Source of the DNA: an uncultured Planctomycetales bacterium
Lineage (GTDB): Bacteria; Omnitrophota; Gorgyraeia; Zapsychrales; Fredricksoniimonadaceae
Reading direction: 5' to 3'
DNA length: 60,137 nucleotides
Assembly (NCBI GenBank): GCA_964643325.1
Contig: CAZXSE010000007.1
Coordinates: 1-60,137 of the forward strand
Shown here: piece by piece, positions 5,169 through 33,486 of the stretch
How the letters are laid out: each line of letters opens with the position of its first letter
Position numbering within the stretch: the stretch's first letter is position 1
Notes under the pieces: model-generated
Database searches by the model: none
The model's input: only the letters and a program-made list of their open reading frames with translations
What the model was told of the DNA's origin: nothing
Translations under genes and position numbers: made by a program

Positions 5169-6716
5169 TTGCTCATGCTTGCCAGATCATTCACCTTCGG
5201 GCTCAACGGACTGAGCGCCTACCCCATTACCATTGAAGTGGACGTTAGCCAGGGCCTGCCATCGTTGACCATCGTCGGCCTGCCGGACAATGCCATTCGT
5301 GAGAGCAAAGAGCGCGTCCGCTCCGCGATCAGGAACTCCGGCTACACATTCCCATCCGCGCGCATCATCATTAATCTCGCTCCGGCCGACACGCCCAAAG
5401 AAGGCCCCTGCTTTGACCTTCCCATCGCCCTGGGCCTTCTGGCCGCGACCGAACAACTGCCTGTAACACTCCTGGCCCGTTTCGCCTCTTTGGGAGAACT
5501 TTCACTGACCGGAGAAATAAAAACAGTTGCCGGTGTCTTACCCGCATCGATCGCTTCGGCGCAGAACACGGACGGCAACGGCGGCGGATTGATCGTACCG
5601 CGCGCCAACGCCGAAGAAGCTGCCCTCGCGCACAATGCCCGTATATTCCCTTTCACCACATTGATCGAAGCCGCCCGATTCATCCAGGAACCTGAAAAGA
5701 CCAATGCATTCCTCGCCGCTGCGCAAGGGCCGGGCCAAGATGCCGCTACCTGCGGCGAGCTTGATCTAGGCGATGTCAAAGGACAGACCATTGCCAAACG
5801 CGGACTTGAAGTGGCGTCAGCCGGCGGGCATAACGCGCTTTTGCTGGGGCCTCCGGGCAGCGGCAAGACCATGCTGGCCCGGCGCCTGCAGACCATCCTG
5901 CCACCATTGACCCGCGACGAGGCGCTCGAGATCACCAAGATCCATTCGATCGCCGGCATCAACAGCTCCGGGACCACGCTGACCTGCACCCGGCCGTTCC
6001 GCTCGCCGCATCACACGGCATCGACCGTTTCTCTCGTCGGAGGCGGCTCCGACCCAAAGCCGGGAGAGGTGACCCTCGCGCATCACGGCATCTTGTTCCT
6101 GGACGAATTACCCGAATTCAGCCGCAGCGCCCTCGAGGCCCTGCGCCAGCCACTGGAAGACCGCTTCGTTACCATTGCTCGCGCCACCAGGACCCTGCGC
6201 TTCCCCGCGAAATTCACCCTGCTGGCGGCCATGAACCCCTGCCCGTGCGGGCATCTCGGCGACAGGCAAAGAGCCTGCCGCTGTTCCAGCACGCAGATCC
6301 AGCGGTATCAGATGAAAATATCCGGGCCGCTCCTGGACCGGATCGATATCCACCTGGATGTCCCTGCGTTAAGGACCGAAGACCTGCTCGGTGCTCCATC
6401 GGGAGAATCTTCCGCGACGATCCGCGCGCGTGTCGTTGCCGCACGAGAGCGCCAGCTGGCGCGCTTCCATGCGGAGAATATTTATGCCAACGCGCAAATG
6501 TCCCACCGGCATATCAGGAAATTCTGTGCCCTGGACAAGGCCTCGCAAAAACTTCTCAAAGAAGCTGTGGATAATCTCGGACTTTCCGCGCGCGCCCACG
6601 ACAAGATCTTGCGCCTGGCGCGCACGATCGCCGACCTGGCTGAACAAGAGGACATCTCCCCCGCGCATCTGGCTGAGGCTATCGGGTACAGGACGTTGGA
6701 CAGGAATATTAAATAA
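5169..6716 (+). CDS. comM: YifB/ComM Mg-chelatase-like AAA+ ATPase
   Basis: GLPDNAIRESKERVRSAI, GPPGSGKT Walker A, LFLDELPEF, SGPLLDRID. Confidence 0.95.
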   Translation: MLMLARSFTFGLNGLSAYPITIEVDVSQGLPSLTIVGLPDNAIRESKERVRSAIRNSGYTFPSARIIINLAPADTPKEGPCFDLPIALGLLAATEQLPVTLLARFASLGELSLTGEIKTVAGVLPASIASAQNTDGNGGGLIVPRANAEEAALAHNARIFPFTTLIEAARFIQEPEKTNAFLAAAQGPGQDAATCGELDLGDVKGQTIAKRGLEVASAGGHNALLLGPPGSGKTMLARRLQTILPPLTRDEALEITKIHSIAGINSSGTTLTCTRPFRSPHHTASTVSLVGGGSDPKPGEVTLAHHGILFLDELPEFSRSALEALRQPLEDRFVTIARATRTLRFPAKFTLLAAMNPCPCGHLGDRQRACRCSSTQIQRYQMKISGPLLDRIDIHLDVPALRTEDLLGAPSGESSATIRARVVAARERQLARFHAENIYANAQMSHRHIRKFCALDKASQKLLKEAVDNLGLSARAHDKILRLARTIADLAEQEDISPAHLAEAIGYRTLDRNIK

Positions 6717-6729
6717 AGAAAGGAACATC

Positions 6730-7332
6730 ATGAAAGAAAAACAACGTTCCGTCACTATTCTTGGAACAAGGATCGAACAAAAAATATTTTTTATCCGCGG
6801 TAAGAAAATAATGATCGACAAGGATCTCGCTGAGCTTTACGAAGTCCCAACAAAACGGCTGAATGAACAAGTTAAGCGTAATTTACAGCGCTTTCCTGAT
6901 GATTTCATGTTCCAGCTTTCACGCCGGGAACTCAATGAGGTGGTCGCAAATTGCGACCACCTCAAAGGCATCAAATTCTCTCACACCTTGCCCTACGCTT
7001 TCACAGAACATGGAATTCTGATGATCTCCAGCGTCTTGAACAGCAACAAAGCCATCGCAGTCAATATCCAGATCATGCGGACATTCACAAAACTGCGGGA
7101 ACTGATGATCGCGCACAAGGACCTCAACGACCGGATCAATGCGCTAGAGGGCAAATACGACCGTCAGTTCAAGGTCGTATTCGATACGATCAGAAAGCTT
7201 CTCATGCCGCCTCCGGCGGCAAAGAAGCTCCCGATCGAATTCCATGTGCGTTCTACAGAAGAAACAACACTGCCTGACCAGAATTTACGATCCCAAGCGA
7301 GCAAGCAAAAAGGAAGGTCCCTCGAACGCTGA
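6730..7332 (+). CDS. ORF6N domain protein (copy 1)
   Basis: IRGKKIMIDKDLAELYEV...RNLQRFPDDFMFQL...PYAFTEHG; start ATG 6730 with RBS. Confidence 0.88.
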   Translation: MKEKQRSVTILGTRIEQKIFFIRGKKIMIDKDLAELYEVPTKRLNEQVKRNLQRFPDDFMFQLSRRELNEVVANCDHLKGIKFSHTLPYAFTEHGILMISSVLNSNKAIAVNIQIMRTFTKLRELMIAHKDLNDRINALEGKYDRQFKVVFDTIRKLLMPPPAAKKLPIEFHVRSTEETTLPDQNLRSQASKQKGRSLER

Positions 7333-16833: not shown

Positions 16834-16905
16834 GTCCCCTTAGCTTAACGGATAAAGCACAAGCCTCCGGAGCTTGGGATGAGGGTTCGATTCCCCCAGG
16901 GGACG
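16834..16905 (+). tRNA. tRNA-Arg (anticodon CCG), CCA not encoded
   Basis: Acceptor stem GTCCCCT/AGGGGAC, anticodon arm CAAGC-CTCCGGA-GCTTG, T-loop TTCGATT. Confidence 0.95.
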
Positions 16906-16952: not shown

Positions 16953-18893
16953 CTAAACTTCGCGCTCCGCAAGCGCCTGCAATTCTTCCCAGCGCTTGTA
17001 CGCCTCCAGGATCGCAAAGCCCAGCTCCTGGGACCGGGCATTGACGCGCGCGATCTCCTGCGGTTCTTTCTTGTAAAGCTCCAGGCTTCCCAACATGGCG
17101 CATAATGCCGCCTGCTCTGCTTCCAGCTTCTCGATCTTTCTCGGCAAATTCTCCAGTTCGCGCCCGTCCTTGAATGACAACTTGGCGCCCGTGCGCGGCC
17201 TCTCAGGCTTTACGACTTTCACTTCTTGCAGTATTTCGTTCTTCAAAGGCGTTGCGGAACTCTGCGCCCCCTGCGCTCGCTGCGCGCACTGCGCTCGCTG
17301 CGCGCACTGCGTGCGCCAATCATCGTACCCGCCGGGATATTCATTCACCTCGCCGTCGCCTTCGAGGACGATCGTGGAAGTGACCACATTGTTCAGAAAT
17401 GAGCGGTCATGGCTGACCAGAATGAGCGTGCCCTCGTAAGCCACCAACAACTGCTCCAAAAGTTCCAGGGTCTCCATGTCCAGGTCGTTCGTCGGCTCGT
17501 CCATGACCAGCAAATTGGAAGCTTGCGTAAAAAGCCGCGCCAACAGCAGACGGTTGCGTTCCCCGCCGGAAAGAACATGCACCGGCGTGCGCGCCCGGTC
17601 CGGCGAAAAAAGAAAATCCTGAAGATAGCCGATAATGTGCCGCGGCTTGCCATTGACCATTACGGTCTCGCTCTGGCCGCAGACATTCTCCATCACGGTC
17701 TTGGTATCATCAAGCGCTTCACGCATCTGATCAAAATATGTCACTTGAAGTTCTGTGCCGAAACGAACCGTGCCTTTGGTGGGGGCCTGCTTGCCCAACA
17801 AAATGCGCAGCAAGGTACTTTTACCGGAACCATTGGCGCCGATCACGCCGATCTTATCCCCCCGCATGATATTCGTCGAAAAATCACGGATCAGGCACTT
17901 GTCCCCGTAAGACTGCCCCAGGCGCGATACCTTCATGACCAGATGGCCCGAAAGGCCGGCTTCCTGAAGCTTGAACTTCGCCTGCCCCTCGCGCTGGCGC
18001 CGCGCGCGCCTTTCGATGCGCATGGATTCAAGCGCCTTCACGCGCCCTTCATTGCGGCAGCGGCGCGCCTCGACCCCGCGCCTGATCCACACTTCCTCTT
18101 CCTCCAGTTTCTTGTCAAAACGCTCCTGACTCGACGCTTCCATGCGCAAAGCCATCTCCTTGCGCTCAAGGAACGTGGTGTAATCACAACTCCAGCTCAT
18201 GATCTGGCCGCGCTCCAGCTCGACGATCCTGGTCGCCACATGCTCCATGAACATCCGATCATGCGTCACAAAAAAGACCGTTCCCTGATATGCTTTCAAA
18301 AGCCCTTCAAGCCAGTCAATAGCGTCAATATCCAGATGATTCGTGGGCTCATCCAATAAAAGGACATCGGGCTTCGCGACCAGCGCCCGCGCCAGAAGAA
18401 CGGAACGTTTCTGCCCGCCGGAAAGCAGCGCAAAATCCCTGTCAGGGTCAAGTTTCATCCGGGCGATCACAGCTTCGACCTGATGGTCCAGCTCCCAGCT
18501 GTGCGTGCGATCAAGCTCGGCCTGCACCACGTCCAACTGACGCAAAAGCTCCGGCGTTGAACCGGCCTGCAGCTGATGGCTGATGTGGTGATACCGGCTC
18601 AATAATGTCGCGCGCACGCCCAAGCCCGACGATACAATATCAAAAACATCGCCTTCCATATCACGCGGCACCTCCTGAAGCAGGTGCGCGACCGTGATCC
18701 CTTTCTGCACAATGACCTGCCCCGCGTCAACACCGCACAGGCCAGCCATTACTTTCATCAATGAGCTCTTGCCTGCGCCGTTACGCCCGAGCAGCGCAAT
18801 GCGCTCCCCCGGCTCAACCTGCAAAGAAAGCTTATCGAACAATTTGGGCCCGCCAAAAGCGAGCGATATTTCTTGAAGACTGATGAAGGACAT
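16953..18893 (-). CDS. uup: ABC-F family ATPase, Uup-like
   Basis: Two ABC domains (GRNGAGKS, LSGGQK, LLLDEPTNHLD; GANGSGKS, LSGGER); C-terminal KLSFK...LPRKIEKLE coiled coil. Confidence 0.9.
   Translation of the reverse strand: MSFISLQEISLAFGGPKLFDKLSLQVEPGERIALLGRNGAGKSSLMKVMAGLCGVDAGQVIVQKGITVAHLLQEVPRDMEGDVFDIVSSGLGVRATLLSRYHHISHQLQAGSTPELLRQLDVVQAELDRTHSWELDHQVEAVIARMKLDPDRDFALLSGGQKRSVLLARALVAKPDVLLLDEPTNHLDIDAIDWLEGLLKAYQGTVFFVTHDRMFMEHVATRIVELERGQIMSWSCDYTTFLERKEMALRMEASSQERFDKKLEEEEVWIRRGVEARRCRNEGRVKALESMRIERRARRQREGQAKFKLQEAGLSGHLVMKVSRLGQSYGDKCLIRDFSTNIMRGDKIGVIGANGSGKSTLLRILLGKQAPTKGTVRFGTELQVTYFDQMREALDDTKTVMENVCGQSETVMVNGKPRHIIGYLQDFLFSPDRARTPVHVLSGGERNRLLLARLFTQASNLLVMDEPTNDLDMETLELLEQLLVAYEGTLILVSHDRSFLNNVVTSTIVLEGDGEVNEYPGGYDDWRTQCAQRAQCAQRAQGAQSSATPLKNEILQEVKVVKPERPRTGAKLSFKDGRELENLPRKIEKLEAEQAALCAMLGSLELYKKEPQEIARVNARSQELGFAILEAYKRWEELQALAEREV
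17262..17311. repeat. Short tandem repeat (9-bp unit CTGCGCnnn, exact 18-bp duplication) in the Uup linker
   Basis: ctgcgctcgctgcgcgca x2 at 17271-17306; encodes QCAQRAQCAQRAQGAQ. Confidence 0.85.
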
Positions 18894-19133: not shown

Positions 19134-20071
19134 AACCTGGCCAGCACCGCGGTCAAACAACTCTCGGCCATGAACCCGCTGCCTTCAAAATCAACGTCCT
19201 GACCCAGGCATTGCACGTCTTTAAGGGCGCGCTTGTGTGCCGCGCCTTTGATGATATTCTGCAAATGTGAATGAAGCATTTCACTGAAATTCGTTGCCAC
19301 GAACAGGATCCCGTCGGGATTAAGCACTTTAATGGCCATCTCCATGACACGCGGCAGGTCTTTCTTGACGCTGAATATCCTGCCCTCATAACGGGCAAAG
19401 GACGGCGGGTCGAGGATGATCATATCAAAACGATTGTCTTTCTTAACAGCGCGCTCCAGATACTCAACAGCATCCGCGCGAATGAACTCGTTCTTCTCGG
19501 CAACAATGCCGTTAAGCTCATAATTCGCCCGGCCGCGCTCCAGGCTCTTGCGGCTGACATCAACATTCACCACCTGTATCGCGCCTGCCTTGCGGCAATG
19601 GACGCCGAACGAACATGTATAAGAGAAAAGATTCAGGACCTTACGTCCGGCGCTTTGGCCTGCCGCCAGATGACGGTTCGCGCGCATATCCAGAAAAAGC
19701 CCGGTATTGAGCGTGTCGTTCATGTCCACGCCAAAACGCAGCCCATGCTCCTCGACCACCGTCGAAGATGCCCCATCGATCCACACATGAAAACGCATGT
19801 TATCAGGGCTTGCCGAGGCGGACGCCGTCCTGTCTTTGGCCACAAAATACTGCGCGCCGCGGCCCTGGACAAAATGAATAAGAGTTTCCTGCTCTGCCAG
19901 CCAGTGTTCGTCGAATATCTGGGCGCAAAAATGCGCATTGTGCTGTTCGAGGACCAGGCCGTCAAGGTCGTCGCCATAGCCGTTGACCAGGCGCACGGCA
20001 TTCGTGACCGTCAAAAGCCCCGCGCGCTTTACGGATGCCGCCTCAAGCTTTGCAAGCAGGGCGGTGTCCAT
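19130..20071 (-). CDS. Class I SAM-dependent methyltransferase (RlmI/RlmK-like)
   Basis: TGLFLDMRANR, VLNLFSYT, IILDPPSF; start ATG 20071. Confidence 0.88.
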   Translation of the reverse strand: MDTALLAKLEAASVKRAGLLTVTNAVRLVNGYGDDLDGLVLEQHNAHFCAQIFDEHWLAEQETLIHFVQGRGAQYFVAKDRTASASASPDNMRFHVWIDGASSTVVEEHGLRFGVDMNDTLNTGLFLDMRANRHLAAGQSAGRKVLNLFSYTCSFGVHCRKAGAIQVVNVDVSRKSLERGRANYELNGIVAEKNEFIRADAVEYLERAVKKDNRFDMIILDPPSFARYEGRIFSVKKDLPRVMEMAIKVLNPDGILFVATNFSEMLHSHLQNIIKGAAHKRALKDVQCLGQDVDFEGSGFMAESCLTAVLARL

Positions 20072-25095: not shown

Positions 25096-25125
25096 TTGGC
25101 AAAGTGGTGGTGGGCGTGTTATACT
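25096..25125 (+). promoter_or_regulatory. Putative sigma70 promoter TTGGCA-18-TATACT with extended TG
   Basis: Read directly upstream of the riboswitch. Confidence 0.55.
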
Positions 25126-25159
25126 TTCTTTGGGTTTGGTGCTCTTTAAGAAATGATCG

Positions 25160-25250
25160 AATGAAGTTGGCAAACTACTTGAAAGAGTAGGACGCAAAGC
25201 CACGAGCCTAACCTCACCTTCCGGTGAGCACGGTCGTCGGGTTGCCGTAA
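25160..25250 (+). promoter_or_regulatory. Cyclic di-GMP-I (GEMM) riboswitch
   Basis: GGCAAAC-TACTT-GAAA-GAGTAG-GACGCAAAGCCACGAGCCTAA...ACGGTCGTCGGGTTGCC matches the c-di-GMP-I consensus landmarks. Confidence 0.9.
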
Positions 25251-25329
25251 CCAGGGGTTCTCCCTCTGGCTTCGTCAATACTGCGCCCTCTCTTTAGAGA
25301 TAATGAAGCTCTAACAAGGGAGGGCGAAA

Positions 25330-25578
25330 ATGTTTAAGACAATCACAGCGGTTACAGCGGCGGTCATGATCATCTCAGGAGCAGGTGCTGCCTGGGCAGA
25401 GGCAACGAGCTTCTCCATTTCGGTGACCATCCCCCCCATGATCTTCTTTGACCAGAAGGCGCTCGCGCCGGGCCAGGCGGTCCTTGATCAGCAGGGAGAT
25501 TCCCAGAAGAATATCCAACAGCAGGCTTTGGTCAGGGACAATAAGAAAGTCCTGATGACCTCTGCAGTCGTTCTGTAA
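25330..25578 (+). CDS. Small secreted protein with a pilin-type N-terminal strand (ATSFSISVTIP)
   Basis: Signal peptide ending AWA; RBS AAGGGAGG; 82 aa. Confidence 0.75.
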   Translation: MFKTITAVTAAVMIISGAGAAWAEATSFSISVTIPPMIFFDQKALAPGQAVLDQQGDSQKNIQQQALVRDNKKVLMTSAVVL

Positions 25579-25618
25579 GCCGGCATCTTCCACCCTTGGG
25601 AAGGCGTCAGGCGTCATA

Positions 25619-25659
25619 GGCCCGGATCATCGCTAATAGAGATCCGGGCTTTCTTTTTT
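25619..25659 (+). terminator. Intrinsic terminator between convergent genes
   Basis: GGCCCGGATC...GATCCGGGCT followed by TTCTTTTTT. Confidence 0.75.
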
Positions 25660-25671
25660 CAACGGGAACTA

Positions 25672-28600
25672 TTATTCGGTGGGAGTTTTCTGCTGCATCG
25701 GGATATGAAAGACATACGTGACGCCTTCCGCCAGATCGATCTCAGTCTTGAGCTTGATCATGGGAATGAGCGCCAGCGGAACTGTTGCCATATCAATGGA
25801 AATAGTATGCTTGCCCGCATCGACCTTCTTGAAGAAATACGCGCCGCGCGCGTCCGTGAACTGGCTGGTCTTGCCATCAAGGATCAGTTTCACACGGGTG
25901 ATAAAAGTATCCCCCGGATCGGGGCGCCCGGTATCATTCCTGTCCACATAAACAACGCCAAAGATGCCCGACTGCGTGGTCAACCCGAAATCAACGCGGT
26001 CCCGCAGGCCCTGACGCACCTCCACCCGCTTGGATGACGGCGTCGAGAATGTATATCCGACGGGAAGGCCGTTCACATCAGGCGCAACGACCGCGCGTTT
26101 GGCGCGCACCTTTGCATTGTACCAGCCATTGGCATCCGTAACAGCCTGCCTGTCCCCCACCTTGACCTTAATGTCCGGCATGCCTTGATCGTCGCTATCC
26201 TGCTTGCCGTTGCCGTTCTTGTCCTTGAACACAACACCTTCGATCGTACCTTGCGGGTCCCAGGACCAGGGCGAACCCCATGCGGCGCGCATGCCCATGC
26301 GCAGATCAAGCGAGTGGTACGAAGCGTCCTCGGTCCTCTGACCCCACACATCGCGCAAGCGGCTGTCAAGAAAAAGGTCGACATCCTCGACGGGGCTGTA
26401 CACGAAAGAGGCTGAGCCTTCGACGCTGTCTTCGCCGGAAAGATAGCTGTTATTGCCCCCGTACCCGGCTTCATTCTGATAGGTCAAGCCGAAGTTCCCG
26501 TGCAGCCGTTTTGTCAACTGATGGCTATAGGAAAGGCCTGTGTTAAAGACATTGGGGTTATAATCCTCGTCCGTCTCAATATCTTCAAGCCATGAATATT
26601 CATAACTTGCCGAATAATAAAGATTCCCGACGAGAGGGATGTTGAACCCGGTCAAAAGCCCGTAACGGTCATACTCGGACTGCGGCGAGAACGCGTAGCG
26701 GCTGCTCTGATAGACGTGGCCGATATAGCCCGATCCGCTGCGGCCATTCCAGACAGGCAAGGTGCGGTGAAGCCGCATATCCGCCGAGAAATAGCGGCGG
26801 GGGGAAATATCCGCCGGCGTGTGCGTATAATATGTTCCCGTGCTCAGCGAATGCTTCTCGTCGAGCTCAATATCGACCCTGGCATTCGCATCATAATTGA
26901 ACGCGTTCGGGTCATCGGGGTTCAGGCTCAACCGGTCGCGATAAACATCAAGCGAGGCGTCTGTCTGCGCCTTGCCAACAGGCACCTGCATGGCCCACAA
27001 AGCCCCGACCTCTCCCTGATTCGACGGATATCCCGTGACCGTCGTGAACTCCTTGTTGATATCCCTCAGGTTCAGGCTCATGGTGCCCCGGCCAAAACCC
27101 CACTTCGACCCGGCCAAAGCCGCCGTGGTCTTCTCATCCTTGGCGATCTCGGCGTTGAGCCTCATCTGGTCAATGACCTGCCACCCCTCGACGGAATAAA
27201 CGCGCTTGGTCAAGGCATCATCCCGATCGGGGCCGGAACCCTGGGCATAATTGAACGCATACTGCCTGTTCTTGTCCTTGGGGAACAGGGTGATCTTCGC
27301 CGCATCAATATAGAAATCCTCTTTCCCGGAGCCGCTGCCCAGGATATAACCGAACGTGCTCCGTTTCTGCCCGCGCGTCAAGGCAAGCCCGAGATTCTCG
27401 TCAAGAAGGTTCACATCCACATACCCGCCGAACAGGGCCGTTCCCGGCAAGGTCAACGGGCTCAAGCGGCGGTTAATATCAAAAAGCCTTATATTCAGGT
27501 CTTTGGTCCCCTCGACCGGAATGCCGGTAAGCCCGACGGTATAGGACGTTACCTCGGTGATCGGATGATAACCGGTCATCGTGGCAGACCCGTCCAGAAG
27601 GCCGTAAGGGGTCTCGCCCACGGTCCCGACGCTTTGCTGATAACTGGGATGATCCCTGCGCTCCAGCCCGTCGATGCTCGGGCCATAATGATAAGAGCTC
27701 CAATCATTGGAGTAGCGGAACCTGAACGGGACCGAATGGTCCACGCCGGTATCGATCCGCGGGACGCCCACATCAGCCCGCGGAACGATCACATCAATAT
27801 AAACAGTGCTGCGCGCCGGGGCGCCTGTTGACTCGTCCCAAATATGAACAAAGGTCGATCCCCAGCGCAGGGTATCCACCTGGATCTGATCGCGCGTGAT
27901 CTTCTTGATGTTCACAACCCCTTCATCAACGATCAGGAACTTGTCGATGCTCTTGCCTTCAATAATAACAGAAGACCCCATCTCGATCTTGACCACAGCC
28001 CTGCTGCCCTGGGCCGCGTTCATGATATCATTCAGCGTGATCACATCAGGCACGGCTTTCTTGGCAAATGCCACCGAAGTCTTGGGCTTTTCAGATACGG
28101 GAACCGGTGTCTGGGCAACAACTTTGGCCGGTGCAGCCTTTGCAGGCGCTATTTTTACGGCCGTCGCTTTTGCAGGTGTCGTCTTAACGTTCACAGGCTC
28201 AGGGCTCTTGGGAAGAACGGGCTCTTTGCGAACAGCGGTCTTTTCCGGAACGACCGCCGTATCCTGCCTGATCTGCACAGTCGCCACCGGAGCCCCCTGC
28301 AAGCGCTCAAGCTGCGCCCAGGATTCAAGCAATCGAGGATCCTCAGGATCGATCAGGCGGGCTGTATTCAGGCTCTGACGCGCCGTCTCAAGGTCCTTGC
28401 GGGCCAGTGCTTCTTTGCCTTTACGCAACATCTCTTCAAAATAAGGCAATGTCACCCGCTCCATGGATACTTGCGCGGGAAGAGACTTCTTTCTGTTCGC
28501 AATAAGTTCAATATACCGGGCAGGTTCTTTCGAGGAGGGGTCTATCTGCTGGGCCCATTTAAAATAACGGGCAGCATCGTCATCCTGTTGCTTTTCAAAG

Positions 28601-28722
28601 GCTTTAGTACCTTCTTTAATACAGTATTGATAGACATTCGACGCGTCCGCGCCGGCCGAAGGGCAAGCCAACGCCGCGAATACGAGAAAAAGAAAAACTC
28701 CTGTTAAGTGCTTCATGGTCAT
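25672..28722 (-). CDS. 1016-aa usher-like outer-membrane protein: TPR-like helices, pilus-formation N-terminal-like domain, beta-barrel-like core, SdrD-B-like C-terminal domains
   Basis: Signal peptide; TPR-like ARYFKWAQQIDPSS and ARLIDPED; GSTFVHIWD segment; aromatic amphipathic strands; GTIEGVVFKDKNGNGKQD and GVVYVDRNDTGRPD. Confidence 0.65.
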   Translation of the reverse strand: MTMKHLTGVFLFLVFAALACPSAGADASNVYQYCIKEGTKAFEKQQDDDAARYFKWAQQIDPSSKEPARYIELIANRKKSLPAQVSMERVTLPYFEEMLRKGKEALARKDLETARQSLNTARLIDPEDPRLLESWAQLERLQGAPVATVQIRQDTAVVPEKTAVRKEPVLPKSPEPVNVKTTPAKATAVKIAPAKAAPAKVVAQTPVPVSEKPKTSVAFAKKAVPDVITLNDIMNAAQGSRAVVKIEMGSSVIIEGKSIDKFLIVDEGVVNIKKITRDQIQVDTLRWGSTFVHIWDESTGAPARSTVYIDVIVPRADVGVPRIDTGVDHSVPFRFRYSNDWSSYHYGPSIDGLERRDHPSYQQSVGTVGETPYGLLDGSATMTGYHPITEVTSYTVGLTGIPVEGTKDLNIRLFDINRRLSPLTLPGTALFGGYVDVNLLDENLGLALTRGQKRSTFGYILGSGSGKEDFYIDAAKITLFPKDKNRQYAFNYAQGSGPDRDDALTKRVYSVEGWQVIDQMRLNAEIAKDEKTTAALAGSKWGFGRGTMSLNLRDINKEFTTVTGYPSNQGEVGALWAMQVPVGKAQTDASLDVYRDRLSLNPDDPNAFNYDANARVDIELDEKHSLSTGTYYTHTPADISPRRYFSADMRLHRTLPVWNGRSGSGYIGHVYQSSRYAFSPQSEYDRYGLLTGFNIPLVGNLYYSASYEYSWLEDIETDEDYNPNVFNTGLSYSHQLTKRLHGNFGLTYQNEAGYGGNNSYLSGEDSVEGSASFVYSPVEDVDLFLDSRLRDVWGQRTEDASYHSLDLRMGMRAAWGSPWSWDPQGTIEGVVFKDKNGNGKQDSDDQGMPDIKVKVGDRQAVTDANGWYNAKVRAKRAVVAPDVNGLPVGYTFSTPSSKRVEVRQGLRDRVDFGLTTQSGIFGVVYVDRNDTGRPDPGDTFITRVKLILDGKTSQFTDARGAYFFKKVDAGKHTISIDMATVPLALIPMIKLKTEIDLAEGVTYVFHIPMQQKTPTE

Positions 28723-28767: not shown

Positions 28768-29574
28768 CTAGTCCCGAACGCCTGTTATGTCGGCACTTCC
28801 GGAGGCATTCTTCGTGATCTCTATTTCCTTAACAAGAACATCCCCTCCTTCAAGGTCCGCGTTAAGAACAAATGTGTATTTGCCCGCCCCCAGATCAGCG
28901 GGAAGAGCAAGCTCAAAAGGCGCCGCCTCCCCGGGCGGAACATATACTTTCTTGACCGATCCCCGGTCCTTGACGCTGCCACCATCATCCATGGCGTAAT
29001 AAGTAATATCTGCGATAAGAACAGCGTCCCCCTGGTTGACAAAGCTCCCGTTAACAACCGCGCCGTTCATTTTGAAATCCTGCATTGCGCACGACTTGTC
29101 CTTATTCTGCGACTCAATGAAGAACAGGACCCCGGTGCGCATGACGATATTGACGCCCGTCTGGTCCTGCAGAAGATCCCCTGTCTTCTCAAAGAAAAGG
29201 ACCCCGTAATGCCCGCCCTTGATATCCTGCGGCACATTGATCAGGTACTGGATCTTCTCCTTGGCAAAGCCGGCCAAGGTGACCTCTTGCGGCGTGATCC
29301 TGACCCATTCGGCCGCCGAACCCGGCATGATCCCCGCCGGAGAGAAATCCTTGGCCCCGTCGTAAGGAGCTGTGTACTTGAAATCCTCCCAATACAGACG
29401 GTATGTCTCCGTGTTCTTGGAGAGATTGTGCACCATGATCTCGCCGCTCACGCGCTCGCCGGGAGCGACCGAAATAACAAGCTTGCCGTGCTCGATCATG
29501 AGCTCCGCCGATGCCGGCGGCAGCGCGCAAAAGAATAAAGCGATCAGGGCAACAACGATCTTTTTGATCATCAT
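28768..29574 (-). CDS. PapD/DUF916-like periplasmic chaperone
   Basis: Signal peptide; VAPGERVSGEIMVHN, SAAEWVRITPQEVTL, INVP...GGHYGVLFFE; second Ig-like domain ending GKYTFVL. Confidence 0.65.
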   Translation of the reverse strand: MMIKKIVVALIALFFCALPPASAELMIEHGKLVISVAPGERVSGEIMVHNLSKNTETYRLYWEDFKYTAPYDGAKDFSPAGIMPGSAAEWVRITPQEVTLAGFAKEKIQYLINVPQDIKGGHYGVLFFEKTGDLLQDQTGVNIVMRTGVLFFIESQNKDKSCAMQDFKMNGAVVNGSFVNQGDAVLIADITYYAMDDGGSVKDRGSVKKVYVPPGEAAPFELALPADLGAGKYTFVLNADLEGGDVLVKEIEITKNASGSADITGVRD

Positions 29575-29598: not shown

Positions 29599-30963
29599 TT
29601 AATTCTGGTTCAGCGAGAACCTTATCGGCGCTTTATAGCTTCCGCTGGGAAGCCCTTTATAACCCTGGACCCTGTACACCACATTGAATTTCACCGGTGC
29701 GCCCTTTTTATTGGAAACGAACACCGGATACTCGCCGGTCTTGACCGAGACAAAGTCCGTGAACTGCGATGCGGCCTTCTCGCCTTCGACAACGCCGACC
29801 TTCATCGTGAAATACTCCGGAGACATTTCGTCGCCTTTGGCATTGCGCATCAGGGTGCTTACCTGTTGCGTGACCTGATAGGGCTTGTGCATGTTCGACC
29901 GGACCACGACCTGCACCTCTTTCTCCATCGGAGGCTGGTCAGGAAGCACCTGCGTGAAACTGATGCCTTCCGGCGGGAACACCAGGTCCATGCTGAACAC
30001 CGGCTGGATATGGACCTGCAGATCGACCTGGAATACGCTTTCTTTATCATTCGCCACGACGATATACTTCACCCGGCCCATGTAAACACCGGCCTCTTCA
30101 AGCTCAGCCAATTCCTTGGCCATGGAGAAATATACCGCGAAATCATCCTGCTGTTCCTGGCTGGAATAAACAAGAACGCGGTCTTTCTTCAGCGGCTGCG
30201 GATCACGCACGCGCAGCGCTTCAAGGACCTTGCCATCGGCAACAAACCGTACAACATCAGCGCCGATCTCCCTGCCGTCCTCACCCTGGGGCAGGAACTC
30301 GACCTCCTGATACACCTGGACCTGCTGGCCCATGTTCCCCGAGAATGTCACCTTGACCGCATCCTCAAGGCTCGCCGTGGCCCCGGAATCACGAACGATC
30401 ACACGCTCCGGCATATGCCCGCCGGAAACCATGACCTTCCAGTCTGCCGTGCTTTCCAGGGACACATTCACAAAGACCTGGGTCGGCGCGCCGCCGGCAA
30501 TAGGACGCAAGGTGAAAACGATCTTTCCCGAAAAGATCCCGCTCGTATTCAACAGGTCCGGCCTCACCGCATACGCGATCCGGAAAGAATCGCTCTCTCC
30601 GTTCTGGCCTGATGTATAAACAAGCTGTTCGCTGAAACTCAAGTTATCCGCATTCTGAAGATATAATGTGCCTGCCGCGTTGGAAGAGCTCAGCGACGCA
30701 CATTCAATGACCTGAAGATCAAGGCGCTCGCCTCTTTCATTCACGATCGGCTCAATGACCTGCTGAAAGACCTGATAACGATTGCCGTCATCATTGGAAA
30801 CGCGCAGGCGCAGCTCCTGATTGTTCGCAAGACCCGAGATCACGCGGCCAAGACGCAAGGAACCGCTGCCGTCCGTCGCGGTAACGGCCAGGGATGCAGC
30901 CTGAGCCGCTCCTGCACAAAGAACAAAAACTGCAACGGTCAATATCCTGAACATTTCTTTCAT
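29599..30963 (-). CDS. Secreted protein with three tandem pilin/Ig-like repeats
   Basis: Signal peptide; repeat ends SGIFSGKIVFTL, AGVYMGRVKYIV, SGSYKAPIRFSL; recurring YQV.Q motif. Confidence 0.6.
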   Translation of the reverse strand: MKEMFRILTVAVFVLCAGAAQAASLAVTATDGSGSLRLGRVISGLANNQELRLRVSNDDGNRYQVFQQVIEPIVNERGERLDLQVIECASLSSSNAAGTLYLQNADNLSFSEQLVYTSGQNGESDSFRIAYAVRPDLLNTSGIFSGKIVFTLRPIAGGAPTQVFVNVSLESTADWKVMVSGGHMPERVIVRDSGATASLEDAVKVTFSGNMGQQVQVYQEVEFLPQGEDGREIGADVVRFVADGKVLEALRVRDPQPLKKDRVLVYSSQEQQDDFAVYFSMAKELAELEEAGVYMGRVKYIVVANDKESVFQVDLQVHIQPVFSMDLVFPPEGISFTQVLPDQPPMEKEVQVVVRSNMHKPYQVTQQVSTLMRNAKGDEMSPEYFTMKVGVVEGEKAASQFTDFVSVKTGEYPVFVSNKKGAPVKFNVVYRVQGYKGLPSGSYKAPIRFSLNQN

Positions 30964-31148
30964 AGGAAAGCACGCTTTCTATACAATCAATGCCGTTAGA
31001 TATATAAAAAAATAGAACCGCTAAGTTCTATTATATCGTCCGTTTTGTCTTTGCAACAAAAGAAAGTTGTTTTTTATACTTTTAACAATACTGCCACGGT
31101 GATCCTAAATGTAGTGCCGCGCGGCGATATCAAGCCTCGCAAGAAGCC

Positions 31149-31772
31149 TTATGATACGGTCGCCGTAACGGTCAAGGTCCCGGTATACGTTCCCGCTTTA
31201 TCGGAAGATGTGAATACCTCTGTATTATCAATGCCGTCGTCCGTTTTGGTAACGATCCCCAACTGAACGCGGAACCAGACACCCGGAATGGTCGTTGATC
31301 CAACGGTAATGCCGTTCGTATCACGCAATGCCCTGGTGCCCAGGTCGGTAATCGTGGTCGTGGTCGCGTCCACATACACAAGTTTCTGCAAAGTGGCGGC
31401 CACCTTATAACCAAGGCCGTGGCCCGCTCCGTTAGGATTCGCGCCTTCCGCGTAATTGAGCTTAACGACCAGGCCTGGCAATGTCCCGCTATTCGTGACA
31501 TCAATGGCAAAGCCCTGCGACGTCTTCCAGATGCCCAAACCGAGATCATATGTCAAATTGCCAAAACCAAGCGTCGTGTCCTCCGGGGTCCACACAGTGC
31601 CCGGGTGACCGGCCGCGTCATACTGGAACGCATTCGCGTTGATCGCAATGATGGCCGTACTGGGAAGAATGGTCTTTAAGTGCCGTATGTGTTTATACGT
31701 TCCCGCCAGCGCCGGGCCGCCCGTCGCCAACAAAAAAGCCATCATCATGAATGCCGCTATGGTTCTTTTCAT
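31149..31772 (-). CDS. Pilin-like secreted subunit C
   Basis: Signal peptide; ends DKAGTYTGTLTVTATVS; close paralog of 32354-32968. Confidence 0.7.
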   Translation of the reverse strand: MKRTIAAFMMMAFLLATGGPALAGTYKHIRHLKTILPSTAIIAINANAFQYDAAGHPGTVWTPEDTTLGFGNLTYDLGLGIWKTSQGFAIDVTNSGTLPGLVVKLNYAEGANPNGAGHGLGYKVAATLQKLVYVDATTTTITDLGTRALRDTNGITVGSTTIPGVWFRVQLGIVTKTDDGIDNTEVFTSSDKAGTYTGTLTVTATVS

Positions 31773-32344
31773 TTTGTCACCACTGTTATGGTCAGTGTGC
31801 CCTGATAAGTGCCGGCATGATCCGCATTAGTGAATACCTCAGCACCGCTGACAACAGGATCCCCTGTATAGATCCCGACATACATCTTGATGTTATGATC
31901 CGATGGTCTGTCCGGGATCGTCAATCCATTAACATTCCGGATCGCCCTCGCAGGCATGATATCAACCTCGGTCGTGCCGATAATATCCTTGAACGCGATC
32001 GCTGTCTTATAACCAAGACCGTGCCCGCTATATCCAGCTGTCGTGTTAGGATTCTCTCCCTCGGTGTATTCCAATGATACATCACCGTTGAGCGTAATAT
32101 AATACCCTTTGGATGCTATCCATATCCCATACTCGGGATTGAAACTCAATGTCCCGAAGTCCCATGTCAGATCAGTGTCTTTGACAGGACCCTGGCCGAT
32201 AATGCCTTCCTCTACAACACCGCCGTTGAAAACTTCCGGAACATCGGCTGTGACGATAAAGGTCTTGGCATCACCGGCCAGAGCCTGGCCTGCCTGTGCG
32301 GCTAAGAACACCACCATGACTATGAGGTTCAGTAGCATCCTCAT
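31769..32344 (-). CDS. Pilin-like secreted subunit B
   Basis: Signal peptide, KTFIVTADVP strand, GHGLGYK motif, ends DHAGTYQGTLTITVVTK. Confidence 0.7.
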   Translation of the reverse strand: MRMLLNLIVMVVFLAAQAGQALAGDAKTFIVTADVPEVFNGGVVEEGIIGQGPVKDTDLTWDFGTLSFNPEYGIWIASKGYYITLNGDVSLEYTEGENPNTTAGYSGHGLGYKTAIAFKDIIGTTEVDIMPARAIRNVNGLTIPDRPSDHNIKMYVGIYTGDPVVSGAEVFTNADHAGTYQGTLTITVVTK

Positions 32345-32353
32345 GATGTCACC

Positions 32354-32968
32354 TTATGATACGGTCGCCGTAACGGTTAACGTACCGGTATATGTACCTG
32401 CTTTATCCGTTGATGTGAACACTTCCGTATTCGCAACACCGTCATCCGTGTTCGTCACAACACCCAGCTGGACGCGGAACCATGTTCCGGCAACCGTCGT
32501 AGATCCGACCGTGATGCCGTTGGTATCCTTCAACGCCTTGACACCCAGCGAAGTGACCGTCGTTCCGGTCGAGCTGTAAACAAGCTTCAGCAACGTAGCC
32601 GCGACCTTATAACCAAGGCCATGGCCTGCCCCGTTGGGGTTCGTGCCTTCCGCGTAATTCAGCTTGACGACCAAGCCGGCCGCGGTGCCGTTGTTCGCCG
32701 CATCGATCGCGAAACCCTGCGCTGTCTTCCAGATACCCAGACCCGGATCATACGTCAGATTACCGAAGCCAAGTGTTGTATCTTCCGCGGTCCACACAGT
32801 ACCCGGGTTACCGGCCGCGTCATACTGGAACGCATTCGCATCGATCGCAATGATAGACGCACTCGGTAACGTTGTTGAAACAACGAACGCCTTCGAATCT
32901 GCCCAGGCGCCTCCCGCCTGAACCGCCAGCACGAAGCCAGCTACTATGAAACTGATTAACTTTTTCAT
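32354..32968 (-). CDS. Pilin-like secreted subunit A (probable major subunit)
   Basis: Strong RBS CAGGAGG before ATG 32968; KAFVVSTTLP strand; ends DKAGTYTGTLTVTATVS. Confidence 0.72.
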   Translation of the reverse strand: MKKLISFIVAGFVLAVQAGGAWADSKAFVVSTTLPSASIIAIDANAFQYDAAGNPGTVWTAEDTTLGFGNLTYDPGLGIWKTAQGFAIDAANNGTAAGLVVKLNYAEGTNPNGAGHGLGYKVAATLLKLVYSSTGTTVTSLGVKALKDTNGITVGSTTVAGTWFRVQLGVVTNTDDGVANTEVFTSTDKAGTYTGTLTVTATVS

Positions 32969-33486
32969 AACTACCTCCTGTTTTATTAACATTTTTGTTT
33001 TTCCTGGTTTGTACCTTTAAAATATAGCTTCAAAGCTAAAGATCGAGCTTTGTGAATTAGGGTGGCATCGCAGCATCGAAAATACCCGAAATCTGACTGG
33101 AATGCCGTATTGGTTATGCTATGACAACAGTAGATGGCACAAACATAACACACATGTCAAGGAATGACAAGGGCTACACAACCCCATTTTGGAAGTGTGA
33201 ATCATACCATAAAGGTGGAAGTTGTTGCAAGTACTTTAATTAGGGACAAAATAGCTGCGTTTCCCCGACGCAGAATATTTTTATAATAAACACCTGCTTT
33301 CCCTAATATAGCCAAATAGCTTTCCAGGGGCGTTTTACCCTGCCCAACCTATTGCGGTTGGTCATCCCCATATGCACTACATATAGTTCATCGTTTCTGG
33401 ACGAAAAAGGCTCTCTGGAACATATAAACAGCCCCCTGCAGCTATTGAGGCCACAGAGGGCTGTCAAGACTCTTCAAAGCACGATC

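Follow-up and report, generated by a model that had tools for sequence, protein, structure and literature searches.

The window (the whole 60,137-nt stretch of DNA that was analysed) carries on its forward strand a short gene for a predicted secreted protein, here called the mini-protein. The gene lies behind a riboswitch and converges on a cluster of six genes, a run of secreted-protein genes that extends on the reverse strand from a 1016-aa gene to position 32992. The features of the mini-gene and its leader are as follows, with the basis for each in brackets.

25096..25125, forward strand: sigma-70-type promoter-like site, TTGGCA-18-TATACT, with TG before the -10 (sequence scan)
25141..25147, forward strand: conserved pyrimidine leader element GCUCUUU, anti-Shine-Dalgarno-like (comparison of orthologous leaders)
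25159..25249, forward strand: c-di-GMP-I riboswitch aptamer, RF01051 (75.0 bits, E=6.5e-13)
25181..25194, forward strand: predicted anti-sequestor arm GAAAGAGUAGGACG, comprising the P2 loop, 3' strand and junction (alternative pairing with the anti-Shine-Dalgarno arm)
25251..25269, forward strand: small hairpin 3' of the aptamer, CCAGGGG/CCCUCUGG (RNA folding)
25284..25294, forward strand: predicted anti-Shine-Dalgarno arm CGCCCUCUCUU (folding, leader comparison)
25316..25326, forward strand: Shine-Dalgarno (SD) arm AAGGGAGGGCG, predicted to be sequestered by 25284-25294 (folding, leader comparison)
25330..25578, forward strand: mini-protein gene, 82-aa precursor (ORF list, 94-member family)
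25330..25398, forward strand: predicted signal peptide of 23 aa, ending AGAAWA/E (AF2 helix at residues 2-19, likeness to pilin signal peptides)
25408..25434, forward strand: pilin-like N-terminal strand motif SFSISVTIP, family consensus [FLY]x[LIV]S[VA]T[ILV]P (profiles)
25504..25575, forward strand: conserved C-terminal beta-hairpin, family consensus QLVQTQTVIRNNKSISLTSIVVP, in the window NIQQQALVRDNKKVLMTSAVVL (AF2 strands 61-69 and 72-80)
25617..25661, forward strand: intrinsic terminator of the mini-gene, 12-bp stem at 25617-25652, 12-nt loop, U-run CUUUUUUCA (sequence)

This layout had been described in the original prediction, and scans bore out each part of it: the promoter-like site, the aptamer, an 82-aa signal-peptide ORF with its own terminator, and convergence on the cluster. 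The sequence AAGGGAGGG lies a few nt 5' of the mini-protein ATG. By eye, and following the AxA rule, the precursor would be cleaved at AWA/EATSF to leave a mature product of 59 residues. The terminator starts 38 nt past the stop codon; on the minus strand, no U-run follows its hairpin as read from the sequence.

A word-indexed single-sequence search with the mini-protein returned only itself, and an exhaustive phmmer search yielded the first two homologs. Two large phmmer matches (P0005 and P0006) were discarded as repetitive proteins aligned to the low-complexity middle of the mini-protein. The family comprises 94 unannotated proteins of ~80 aa, and the mini-protein matched no Pfam or NCBIfam family. 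Several database entries of the family begin within the aptamer. Between orthologs, pN/pS ranged from 0.42 to 0.66. We conclude that the ORF is a real, conserved gene for a predicted secreted protein. The earlier description of this protein as essentially a signal peptide plus a donor strand did not hold, as conservation in residues 59-82 is on a par with that in the N-terminal motif (column identity averages 0.75 and 0.72, respectively, against 0.32 in the linker). An AF2 model showed a C-terminal hairpin and otherwise no fold, and comparison of the hairpin with all cluster proteins revealed no similarity.

The genes of the facing cluster are listed below.

25672..28722, reverse strand: 1016-aa outer-membrane protein with TPR, a PF13629 pilus N-terminal domain, a probable beta-barrel and two Ig-like domains (domain search)
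28768..29574, reverse strand: 268-aa secreted protein, candidate periplasmic chaperone (weak fn3-like match only)
29599..30963, reverse strand: 454-aa secreted protein, the best-conserved marker of the module (homolog searches)
31149..31772, reverse strand: pilin-like paralog C, which shares 73% identity with A but diverges in its N-terminal strand, KHIRHLKTILP (alignment)
31769..32344, reverse strand: pilin-like paralog B (ORF, N-terminal motif)
32354..32992, reverse strand: pilin-like paralog A, likely start 32968, 204 aa (alignment, AF2)

Four of these components, namely the 454-aa protein, a pilin-like protein, the 268-aa protein and an outer-membrane protein of ~1000 aa, form a conserved module found mostly in Omnitrophota MAGs. 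The cluster cannot be recognised as a chaperone-usher system: no usher or PapD domains were found among the module proteins. A search for usher PF00577 gave no usher family at E<=1 in the 1016-aa protein, nor at E<=0.1 in 11 orthologs. Domain matches in this protein and its orthologs were to TPR, PF13629, SdrD_B, CarboxypepD_reg and a weak generic beta-barrel, and in a PDB profile search the only matches were to TPR proteins and, weakly, to a secretin N-domain. The protein is usher-like by architecture only. A PapD-like chaperone (PF00345/PF02753) was not found in the 268-aa protein, which gave weak matches to fn3_5 (E=0.004) and BasC (E=2e-4) and nothing in a PDB profile search. Neither the pilins nor the 454-aa protein matched a Pfam or NCBIfam family, and a PDB profile search with the pilin alignment gave nothing useful. 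We also considered the 454-aa protein as three tandem pilin-like domains, a proposal that arose from end motifs seen by eye and was rejected when hhalign gave no support (E=0.05).

The AF2 monomer model of pilin A, built from a 4-sequence alignment, is a beta-sandwich over residues 37-204 (pLDDT mostly 70-90), with residues 1-36 undocked (pLDDT <50). In a Foldseek search with this model the best PDB matches were CfaB chains (E=3e-4, probability 0.99-1.0), with a TM score of only 0.33-0.49, and lower matches included the donor-strand fibre subunits 7ueg, 8aur, 7pnb and 9hdi (E ~0.014-0.02). On this modelling the N-terminal strand of the pilins may act as a donor strand, and the module may assemble by donor-strand exchange.

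The mini-gene was tail-to-tail with the ~1000-aa outer-membrane gene in all 16 distinct loci in which the region was visible. When loci were found through the mini-protein, 10/10 adjoined the outer-membrane gene of the module (nine distinct, since L009 and L010 have the same protein), and all six loci found through the cluster with a visible downstream region had both mini-gene and aptamer. Co-occurrence had been proposed as a check on the association, and in these 16 distinct loci mini-gene, riboswitch and module stood together every time; none of them showed a homolog apart from the fimbrial locus. A 60-aa gene upstream of the L001 module was considered as a mini-protein and rejected as an unrelated hydrophobic ORF with no aptamer; this contig stops before the relevant region. 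In the window, a 93-nt spacer separates the stop codons of the mini-gene and the outer-membrane gene. Elsewhere the distance between the two stop codons is -29 to +39 nt, and most of these loci showed no intrinsic terminator within 200 nt (3/15 have a short-stemmed candidate). The two transcripts probably overlap in those loci.

The aptamer at 25159-25249 is the only riboswitch in the window. Over the whole RF01051 model (positions 1-87 of 87) it scores 75.0 bits, where the gathering score is 35. The original prediction had named a search with this model as the check on its c-di-GMP-I assignment, which the score confirms. Apart from the window, all 13 orthologous loci scanned with Rfam carry the aptamer (58.8-78.6 bits), three of them as a match to the sister model RF03167; the aptamers of L016-L019 were read by eye only, outside the Rfam scan. 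The blocks GGCAAA, GGACGCAAAGCC and UGCCG showed no variation among 10 orthologs, and the GGCAAA, GACGCAAAGCC and UGCCG of the window agree with the consensus. We take c-di-GMP to contact G20, A47 and C92 (Vc2 numbering), which are conserved here, with G20, not A, separating c-di-GMP from cGAMP binders. The cGAMP-specific GEMM-Ib variant was ruled out because the discriminating G is invariant in the 10 orthologs. The window aptamer is thus a bona fide member of the c-di-GMP-I class and is predicted to bind this ligand.

Taken alone, the promoter-like site is at chance level (1 found vs 1.1 expected in shuffles). Most of the orthologous leaders inspected have TTGGCA...TGTTATAYT at an equal distance upstream of the aptamer, as judged by eye and untallied. 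In most orthologous leaders the pyrimidine element recurs, as GCTCTTT or GTTCTTT, directly 5' of the aptamer; where the expression platform is short, its pairing with the SD extends P1. By eye, an ACC...GGU hairpin occupies the place of 25251-25269 in other long-platform loci, and a conserved UYCGUSAA follows this hairpin.

A helix sequestering the SD was predicted in 13/13 long-platform leaders, with compensatory changes and energies of -12 to -35 kcal/mol, and in many orthologs it also buries the AUG. Opening it would cost 15-17 kcal/mol in the window. Across ensembles without ligand the SD opening cost was 5-20 kcal/mol, and forcing the aptamer to fold never lowered this cost and often raised it. 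The folded aptamer shares no nucleotides with the SD-sequestering helix, and the MFE structure contains both. Equilibrium folding yields no switch, as the SD helix wins every ensemble. Because this helix is favoured at equilibrium even without ligand, a model in which c-di-GMP turns the gene off needs kinetic, co-transcriptional control. Polarity was instead deduced from truncated intermediates and from the short platforms.

When the window transcript lacks the SD arm, its MFE structure pairs 25181-25194 with 25284-25295, a duplex of -15.9 kcal/mol compared with -7.5 +/- 2.2 in shuffles. This pairing between the aptamer segment and the anti-SD destroys the aptamer fold. The same pairing, with 13-15 bp and mostly one bulged U, is the MFE structure in 9/10 transcripts cut before the SD arm. 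Duplex energies ranged from -15.5 to -20.6 kcal/mol vs -7 to -12 in shuffles, and the fraction of shuffles reaching the observed energy was <=0.007 in eight of the 10 and 0.13 in L011; the anti-SD of L012 lies outside the 32-nt tail used in this test. By eye, G/A in the aptamer covaries with C/U in the anti-SD. In the short platforms of L018 and L015 the SD pairs with the leader in an extended P1, where it forms the 3' strand of the closing helix. The short platform of L013 places the SD immediately 3' of the aptamer, and its MFE structure has no SD/leader pairing. Alternative pairings are thus predicted to link aptamer folding with access to the SD and AUG. On these predicted structures the riboswitch is probably an OFF switch, with c-di-GMP stopping translation of the mini-protein, and we read the long and short platform designs on orthologous genes as having the same OFF polarity.

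The original prediction had also noted an N-terminal strand pattern common to the mini-protein and the pilins, and profile comparison upheld it. With hhalign, the mini-protein profile (83) matched the pilin profile (16) with a probability of 95% and E=3.7e-8 over 52 columns; the controls, the three other secreted proteins of the cluster, gave E=0.013-0.04, and the match to the 454-aa protein was insignificant (E=0.013 over 4 columns). Those 52 columns cover the first strand together with the signal peptide. Nothing matched the C-terminal half of the mini-protein, in agreement with the earlier statement that the pilin body is absent. When the signal peptides were removed, the two profiles still aligned over 16-19 columns (P=0.007), a short stretch. 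The 454-aa protein has a mature N-terminus, VSLSVNP, that by eye loosely resembles the mini-protein strand.

The strands also co-vary. At position -7 from the invariant Pro, pilin and mini-protein have F/F in 7 loci, L/L or I/L in 5 and Y/Y in 1, and no locus is discordant; in the two loci with two pilins, the mini-protein agrees with one of them. In an NJ tree of the 268-aa protein, built without bootstrapping, loci of the F and L types are intermingled. A permutation test of cognate vs non-cognate pairs over 12 residues gave only p=0.028. Residues identical between pilin and mini-protein mostly differ in codon (9 residues and 3 codons in L016, 5 and 0 in L014), which ruled out recent gene conversion between the two 5' ends as the cause of the co-variation. 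Such co-variation is equally expected if a third protein reads both strands.

We tentatively propose, with a confidence that falls somewhat short of even, that 25096-25661 is a self-contained unit in which c-di-GMP represses the gene of a small secreted accessory protein of a five-component outer-membrane fibre-assembly module, and that this protein is a strand mimic that ends, caps or competes with polymerisation. At low c-di-GMP, the unfolded aptamer would capture the anti-SD and the mini-protein would be translated; at high c-di-GMP, the aptamer would lock, the anti-SD would pair with the SD and translation would stop. Export and signal-peptide cleavage would release the 59-residue peptide, with a pilin-like alternating hydrophobic face on its N-terminal beta-strand. 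Since this strand carries the hydrophobic face of the cognate pilin, it may occupy the site that the pilin strand usually takes, either the acceptor groove of another subunit or an assembly factor that reads the strand. Because the mini-protein has no pilin body and so offers no new groove, it would end, cap or compete with polymerisation. The C-terminal hairpin may bind a second partner, such as the outer-membrane protein, and provide anchoring. The mini-protein would then act at low c-di-GMP as an assembly brake or terminator, and high c-di-GMP would lift the brake and allow fibre growth.

A role as a strand-mimic cap, terminator or inhibitor is plausible, and the predicted OFF polarity is what one would expect of an inhibitor or terminator taken away at high c-di-GMP. 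The idea of a cap, terminator or decoy gated by a second messenger had been put forward in the original prediction and survives in part: the riboswitch, the association with the module and the pilin-like, co-varying strand favour it, but the donor-strand idea leaves the C-terminal hairpin unaccounted for. We regard a more specific version as doubtful. It holds that Omnitrophota have a hitherto unrecognised fibre system without usher or PapD, and that a genome-encoded, free, donor-strand-only peptide gated by c-di-GMP terminates its chains or caps them competitively; the brake would be switched off at translation, and fibre length or attachment would be set post-translationally by the peptide-to-pilin ratio.

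The strand might instead be a shared address label, a recognition or targeting signal for a periplasmic factor or outer-membrane channel. The mini-protein would then be a cargo or a minor structural part (an adaptor, a nucleator, a piece of the tip or base, or, through its hairpin, a plug for the outer-membrane protein or a partner of it) and no inhibitor. A common third docking partner would produce the N-terminal likeness and co-variation equally well, the conserved hairpin implies a second specific interaction, and the constant tail-to-tail position with the outer-membrane gene and the loose resemblance of VSLSVNP point the same way. However, the match of the mini-protein profile to the 454-aa protein is insignificant, and 59 residues with an unstructured middle would make an odd structural subunit. 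An OFF switch on an essential part would also close the fibre down at high c-di-GMP, which is possible but the reverse of the usual logic. We consider this explanation rather unlikely.

Alternatively, c-di-GMP might induce the mini-protein, which would then be a positive assembly factor, a primer or anchor, of the sessile state. Adhesins are usually promoted by c-di-GMP, c-di-GMP riboswitches of both polarities are known, and the polarity deduced here comes solely from secondary-structure modelling. We nevertheless judge an ON switch improbable, as the folded aptamer coexists with the SD-sequestering helix, the only conserved alternative partner of the anti-SD sits inside the aptamer, and in L018 and L015 the SD itself closes the helix. 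It is very unlikely that the peptide is secondary and that what matters is convergent transcription, gated by the riboswitch, that enters the outer-membrane gene from its 3' end and acts by antisense or transcriptional interference. The close, mostly terminator-less stops of the other loci, where overlap is probable, would suit such a role, and of all riboswitch classes that for c-di-GMP most often lies 'antisense' to annotated genes (PMC9943018). Against it, the window combines a strong terminator, 38 nt past the stop, with the 93-nt spacer, the platform targets the SD and AUG and not transcription, and the ORF is kept as a protein in 94 members with two conserved motifs and the pN/pS values given above. 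An antisense riboswitch would feed an ORF-less transcript into the opposite gene; the window has a conserved ORF with an SD and a terminator, and the other loci likewise keep the ORF.

The proposed brake has a counterpart in type 1 pili, where the ratio of the terminator FimI to the major subunit sets pilus length and FimI also helps anchoring (PMC10673952). Like FimI and PapH, the mini-protein is a minor secreted component encoded beside pilus genes, and we propose that it likewise donates a strand and has no acceptor site. PapH, the chain terminator and anchor subunit of P pili, donates its strand but offers no usable acceptor site, and growth stops. FimI and PapH are, however, full-size, chaperone-handled pilin domains, whereas the 59 mature residues of the mini-protein comprise a strand joined by a variable linker to a hairpin, and its gene, unlike theirs, is convergent, riboswitch-controlled and has its own promoter. 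Homology of the mini-protein to FimI or PapH was not detected, and its AF2 model contains a hairpin only and no complete pilin domain. It may work like a terminator, though it stands outside the FimI/PapH family. Synthetic donor-strand peptides also complement pilins in vitro by filling the subunit groove. These are laboratory reagents, whereas the mini-protein, which may fill a groove in the same way, is genome-encoded and regulated and has an extra C-terminal hairpin.

Among other fibres, the pilin A model, whose N-terminal strand is undocked in the monomer, best matches CfaB, the major subunit of alternate (class 5) chaperone-usher pili, followed by the donor-strand-complemented fibres TasA, archaeal bundling pili, Sulfolobus threads and CanA. 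The low TM scores came with no sequence-level relationship, and the module has no usher or PapD-type proteins; its outer-membrane protein carries TPR and PF13629 domains instead. In curli, the N-terminal 22 residues of CsgA target CsgG, and CsgE and CsgF are small accessory proteins. The likeness lies in a mature N-terminal segment serving as a channel address and in small secreted accessory proteins tuning assembly, but no sequence or fold relationship to the mini-protein was detected. We know of no curli accessory gene that is riboswitch-controlled. Clostridioides difficile has c-di-GMP riboswitches before pilA1 (class II, ON) and flgB (class I, OFF), which act on major structural operons through termination or antitermination of transcription. 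As there, an RNA sensing a second messenger gates an appendage gene, and the window aptamer class, RF01051, is that of flgB. By contrast, the mini-gene riboswitch serves only a tiny accessory peptide and would act on translation initiation, through an anti-sequestor and sequestor or through an SD within P1.

These results define a five-part module (the 454-aa protein, the pilin-like subunit, the 268-aa protein, the ~1000-aa outer-membrane protein and the riboswitch-controlled mini-protein) found mostly in Omnitrophota, a phylum known almost solely from metagenomes. We did not find the module described in the literature searched, and all members with source names shown are called 'hypothetical protein'. 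If the mini-protein is a strand mimic, this would be, to our knowledge, the first natural pilus-type polymer regulated by a stand-alone donor-strand peptide, and an unusual use of a riboswitch, which would control assembly stoichiometry instead of a structural operon. A seemingly 'antisense' c-di-GMP riboswitch can conceal an unannotated or mis-annotated small ORF, and the mini-gene leaders offer a clean comparative case of two expression-platform designs on orthologous genes.

Scanning the window with Rfam covariance models returned a single riboswitch, a full-length c-di-GMP-I aptamer of the RF01051 type at 25159-25249 (+) (75 bits against a gathering score of 35, E=6.5e-13), in agreement with the original prediction. 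The accompanying promoter, secreted 82-aa ORF, own terminator and convergence on the fimbrial cluster that it had described were each confirmed as well:

25096-25125: promoter-like site TTGGCA-18-TATACT with a TG extension, upstream of the aptamer
25330-25578 (+): mini-gene ORF of 82 aa, the sole + strand ORF downstream of the aptamer
25617-25661: mini-gene terminator, a 12-bp hairpin followed by a U-run
25672-28722 (-): 1016-aa gene, convergent with the mini-gene

The promoter match is a single hit, which is the number expected from shuffled sequence; by eye, TTGGCA...TGTTATAYT is found again at equal distance in most orthologous leaders. The mini-gene has a strong, purine-rich ribosome-binding site, and the signal peptide of its product ends in AWA before EATSF (cleavage site by eye; the AlphaFold2 (AF2) helix spans residues 2-19). 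Beyond the 1016-aa gene, more genes for secreted proteins follow on the - strand, reaching 32992.

A word-indexed search with the mini-protein recovered the query alone, and an exhaustive phmmer search, run against 1.84 billion representatives, added two full-length relatives (76 and 81 aa). With a nine-sequence profile the family grew to 94 proteins of about 70-90 aa, and the source names shown were 'hypothetical protein' throughout. The family consensus consists of a signal peptide, an N-motif ([FLY]x[LIV]S[VA]T[ILV]P) that opens the mature protein, a variable linker and a C-terminal QLVQTQTVIRNNKSISLTSIVVP, with mean column identities of 0.72 in the N-motif, 0.32 in the linker and 0.75 in the C-terminal part. 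Orthologous mini-gene pairs had a pN/pS of 0.42-0.66. Judged by sequence conservation, the ORF is a real, conserved gene. In an AF2 model from an 83-sequence alignment (pLDDT 65 overall), only a beta-hairpin (61-69 and 72-80) formed, and the N-motif and linker were unstructured; on this model the mature protein is unlikely to fold by itself. Five database calls for family members (P0034, P0039, P0074, P0088 and P0099) carry 30-45 extra N-terminal residues, and at orthologous locus L014 the called gene (3496-3864) starts upstream of the aptamer and runs through it. The true start in these over-long calls is after the Shine-Dalgarno sequence (SD).

The pilin-like N-terminal pattern noted originally was borne out by profile comparison: hhalign aligned the mini-protein with the pilin profile over 52 columns covering the signal peptide and first strand (probability 95%, E=3.7e-8). 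This is not generic signal-peptide similarity, because the other three secreted proteins of the module gave E=0.013-0.04. With signal peptides removed, 16-19 columns still aligned at the mature N-terminal extremes (P=0.007), and the C-terminal half of the mini-protein had no match among the module proteins. By eye, mini-proteins and pilins (alignments A3 and A4) both keep a Gln within the signal-peptide hydrophobic core or directly behind it (...[FIL]xQ[TA]xPA...), which the other three secreted proteins lack; conservation of this kind is unusual in a signal peptide and could mean that both families stem from a pilin 5' fragment or are specially processed. Two pilin paralogs of the window, A (32354-32992) and C (31149-31772), are 73% identical overall, and the mature N-terminal strand of C is rewritten to GTYKHIRHLKTILP, gaining charged and His residues as well as two inserted residues, against DSKAFVVSTTLP in A. 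If the first strand is the polymerisation strand, pilin C may be non-donating, for example a tip or first subunit.

We compared position -7 from the invariant Pro, the first of four alternating hydrophobics, between pilins and their cognate mini-proteins. The pairs were F/F at seven loci, L/L or I/L at five and Y/Y at one, with no discordant pair among single-type loci; at two loci with both an F and an L pilin, the mini-protein agreed with one of the two. A neighbour-joining tree of the 268-aa protein, built without bootstrapping, had F-type and L-type loci interspersed, which by our reading requires at least three concordant changes that arose independently. A less refined permutation test, covering 12 positions, gave p=0.028. 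Recent gene conversion was rejected as the source of this co-variation because the residues common to both strands mostly use different codons. The pattern argues that both strands answer to one binding site, in either the pilin groove or a third protein.

Using the neighbouring 454-aa protein as query, with one genome per species, we found seven related loci, six in Omnitrophota MAGs and one in a MAG labelled Planctomycetales. At the loci where DNA past the outer-membrane gene is present (L002 and L004-L008), the mini-gene lies tail-to-tail with that gene and is preceded by a c-di-GMP-I aptamer. We also looked up ten family members by identity, without using the cluster as a criterion (P0007 on two contigs, P0008, P0023, P0092, P0099, P0095, P0049, P0079, P0091 and P0094). 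The original prediction had counted homologs independent of the fimbrial locus as a refutation; all ten adjoined an ortholog of the 1016-aa gene, and this constant association favours a functional link with the module. On sufficiently long contigs the order was ~455-aa, ~210-aa pilin-like, ~267-aa and ~1000-aa genes, then the convergent mini-gene. The aptamer was present at 13 of 13 loci scanned with Rfam and was visible in the sequence of L016-L019. Because the flanking genes vary from locus to locus, the five parts form one unit.

No module protein could be assigned to a described family. In the 1016-aa protein, as in each of the ten orthologs tested, there are TPRs, PF13629 ('pilus formation protein N-terminal region'; best E=4.5e-9) and two C-terminal Ig-like domains (SdrD_B, CarboxypepD_reg), and the central region of the 1016-aa protein gave weak generic beta-barrel matches only. 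Pilin A, modelled by AF2 from four aligned sequences (pLDDT 74, pTM 0.71), contains a beta-sandwich at 37-204; residues 1-36, the signal peptide and first strand, had pLDDT <50. Foldseek against the PDB ranked CfaB, which is the major subunit of the CFA/I pilus (a chaperone-usher pilus), first with four chains (E=3e-4 to 2e-3, probability 0.98-1.0, TM only 0.33-0.49), and other donor-strand-complemented fibre subunits ranked lower: 7ueg (archaeal bundling pilin), 8aur (TasA), 7pnb (Sulfolobus thread) and 9hdi (CanA). Architecture and this weak fold similarity make 'fimbrial cluster' a reasonable working label. Membership of the chaperone-usher family was not supported: no usher domain was found in the 1016-aa protein or its ten orthologs, nor a PapD domain in the 268-aa protein. 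By eye, three segments are apparent in the 454-aa protein (29599-30963), all terminating in G-x-[YF]-x-G-x-[IV]-x-[FY] as the pilin C-terminus does (AGTYTGTLTVTA), and its internal PVFSMDLVFPPEG resembles the N-motif; its profile comparison with the pilins was not significant (E=0.05).

Orthologous mini-genes carry one of two expression platforms, long or short. In the long, three-element design (aptamer, anti-SD, SD), seen in the window and 12 others, the SD and in many cases the AUG are hidden within a hairpin of -12 to -35 kcal/mol, with compensatory changes between loci in the SD-burying helix. In the window, 25284-25294 pairs with 25316-25326 at an opening cost of 15-17 kcal/mol; the MFE contains this helix and the aptamer side by side, with no overlap between them, so binding of the ligand cannot open it. 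The anti-SD arm has a second complementary partner inside the aptamer itself, GAAAGAGUAGGACG (25181-25194), made up of the loop and 3' strand of P2 and the junction holding the ligand. In transcripts truncated before the SD arm, mimicking the co-transcriptional intermediate, the MFE formed a 13-15-bp aptamer/anti-SD helix in nine of ten, with one bulged U in most. Duplex energies ranged from -15.5 to -20.6 kcal/mol, compared with -7 to -12 when the tails were shuffled, and in 8/10 transcripts at most 0.7% of shuffles reached the observed energy. By eye, where the aptamer segment differs between G and A, the anti-SD arm differs correspondingly between C and U. The simplest reading of these models is a kinetic OFF switch, in which the apo aptamer captures the anti-SD arm and leaves the SD free, and the ligand-bound aptamer leaves the anti-SD arm free to sequester SD and AUG.

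In the short design (L013, 8903-9001; L015, 6503-6605; L018, about 6890-7001) the SD lies 3-6 nt past the aptamer. At L018 and L015 its partner is the conserved leader GCUCUUU, and their pairing extends the closing helix, which again predicts OFF; at L013 this pairing was absent from the MFE. Forcing the aptamer to fold never lowered the SD-opening cost and often raised it. OFF polarity is a prediction from structure modelling. L014 (3516-3625) has the post-aptamer hairpin and no obvious SD. UYCGUSAA after the post-aptamer hairpin (25270-25279 and orthologs) repeats the CGNNA following the aptamer 3' end, and may extend that hairpin or serve as an alternative closing strand. Three aptamers (L004, 16300-16391; L008, 16404-16494; L013, 8903-8993) matched RF03167 (c-di-GMP-I-GGC) best, at 62.7-66.9 bits against a gathering score of 59. 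Their binding-site blocks look identical to those of the other orthologs; the assignment seems borderline and suggests no ligand change.

Our tentative account of the full chain, to which we give somewhat less than an even chance, is a c-di-GMP-gated strand-mimic brake on fibre assembly. At low c-di-GMP the cell would make a 59-residue periplasmic or secreted peptide whose N-terminal strand mimics that of the pilin and which, having no pilin body, would end, cap or compete with polymerisation. Its conserved C-terminal hairpin would hold a second partner, possibly anchoring it at the outer-membrane protein, and at high c-di-GMP the brake would not be made. The mini-protein would function like the terminator subunits FimI and PapH, although it is not a member of their family; in the case of FimI, pilus length depends, through stochastic termination, on its ratio to the major subunit, and FimI has a part in anchoring as well (PMC10673952). 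The main alternative, somewhat less likely, is that the shared strand serves as an address which the chaperone-like or channel protein of the module would read; the mini-protein would then be a structural adaptor or one more cargo. For the window, where the mini-gene has its own terminator, the convergent transcript is unlikely to act as antisense. At other loci, where the stop codons of the two genes are separated by -29 to +39 nt and most show no terminator, antisense may occur as a side effect.

The aptamer belongs to a known class and is unremarkable within it; the mini-protein family and module are undescribed, with no models in Pfam or NCBIfam. Our literature search found nothing relevant on riboswitches, pili or c-di-GMP in Omnitrophota, or on a donor strand combined with a c-di-GMP riboswitch. 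To our knowledge, neither a stand-alone, strand-only regulator of a pilus-type polymer nor a riboswitch devoted to an accessory peptide of this kind has been described. If confirmed, capping would be a categorically new mechanism.

Gene order in the window (29599-32992) is unusual compared with L002-L019: its three pilin paralogs are all located upstream of the 454-aa gene, and the 454-aa and 268-aa genes have no pilin between them, whereas the other loci have 454-aa, pilin, 268-aa and outer-membrane genes in that order. L017 has an additional pilin upstream of the 454-aa gene, and L007 a tandem pair. The mini-gene and outer-membrane gene overlap at their 3' ends by 11-29 nt at L002 (16054-16064), L004 (15960-15985) and L007 (16591-16619), and their stop codons abut at L012-L014 (gap 0); the window is the exception in having a terminator and a spacer of 93 nt. 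At L013 and L016 many genes are in short pieces (e.g. Tex, DnaX, the 454-aa and outer-membrane genes), most likely from assembly or sequencing frameshifts and not as pseudogenes. Other RNA genes were a tRNA in the window (16834-16905) and, at L005, a fluoride riboswitch (5934-6003), a tRNA (17956-18029) and RNase P RNA (19271-19637).
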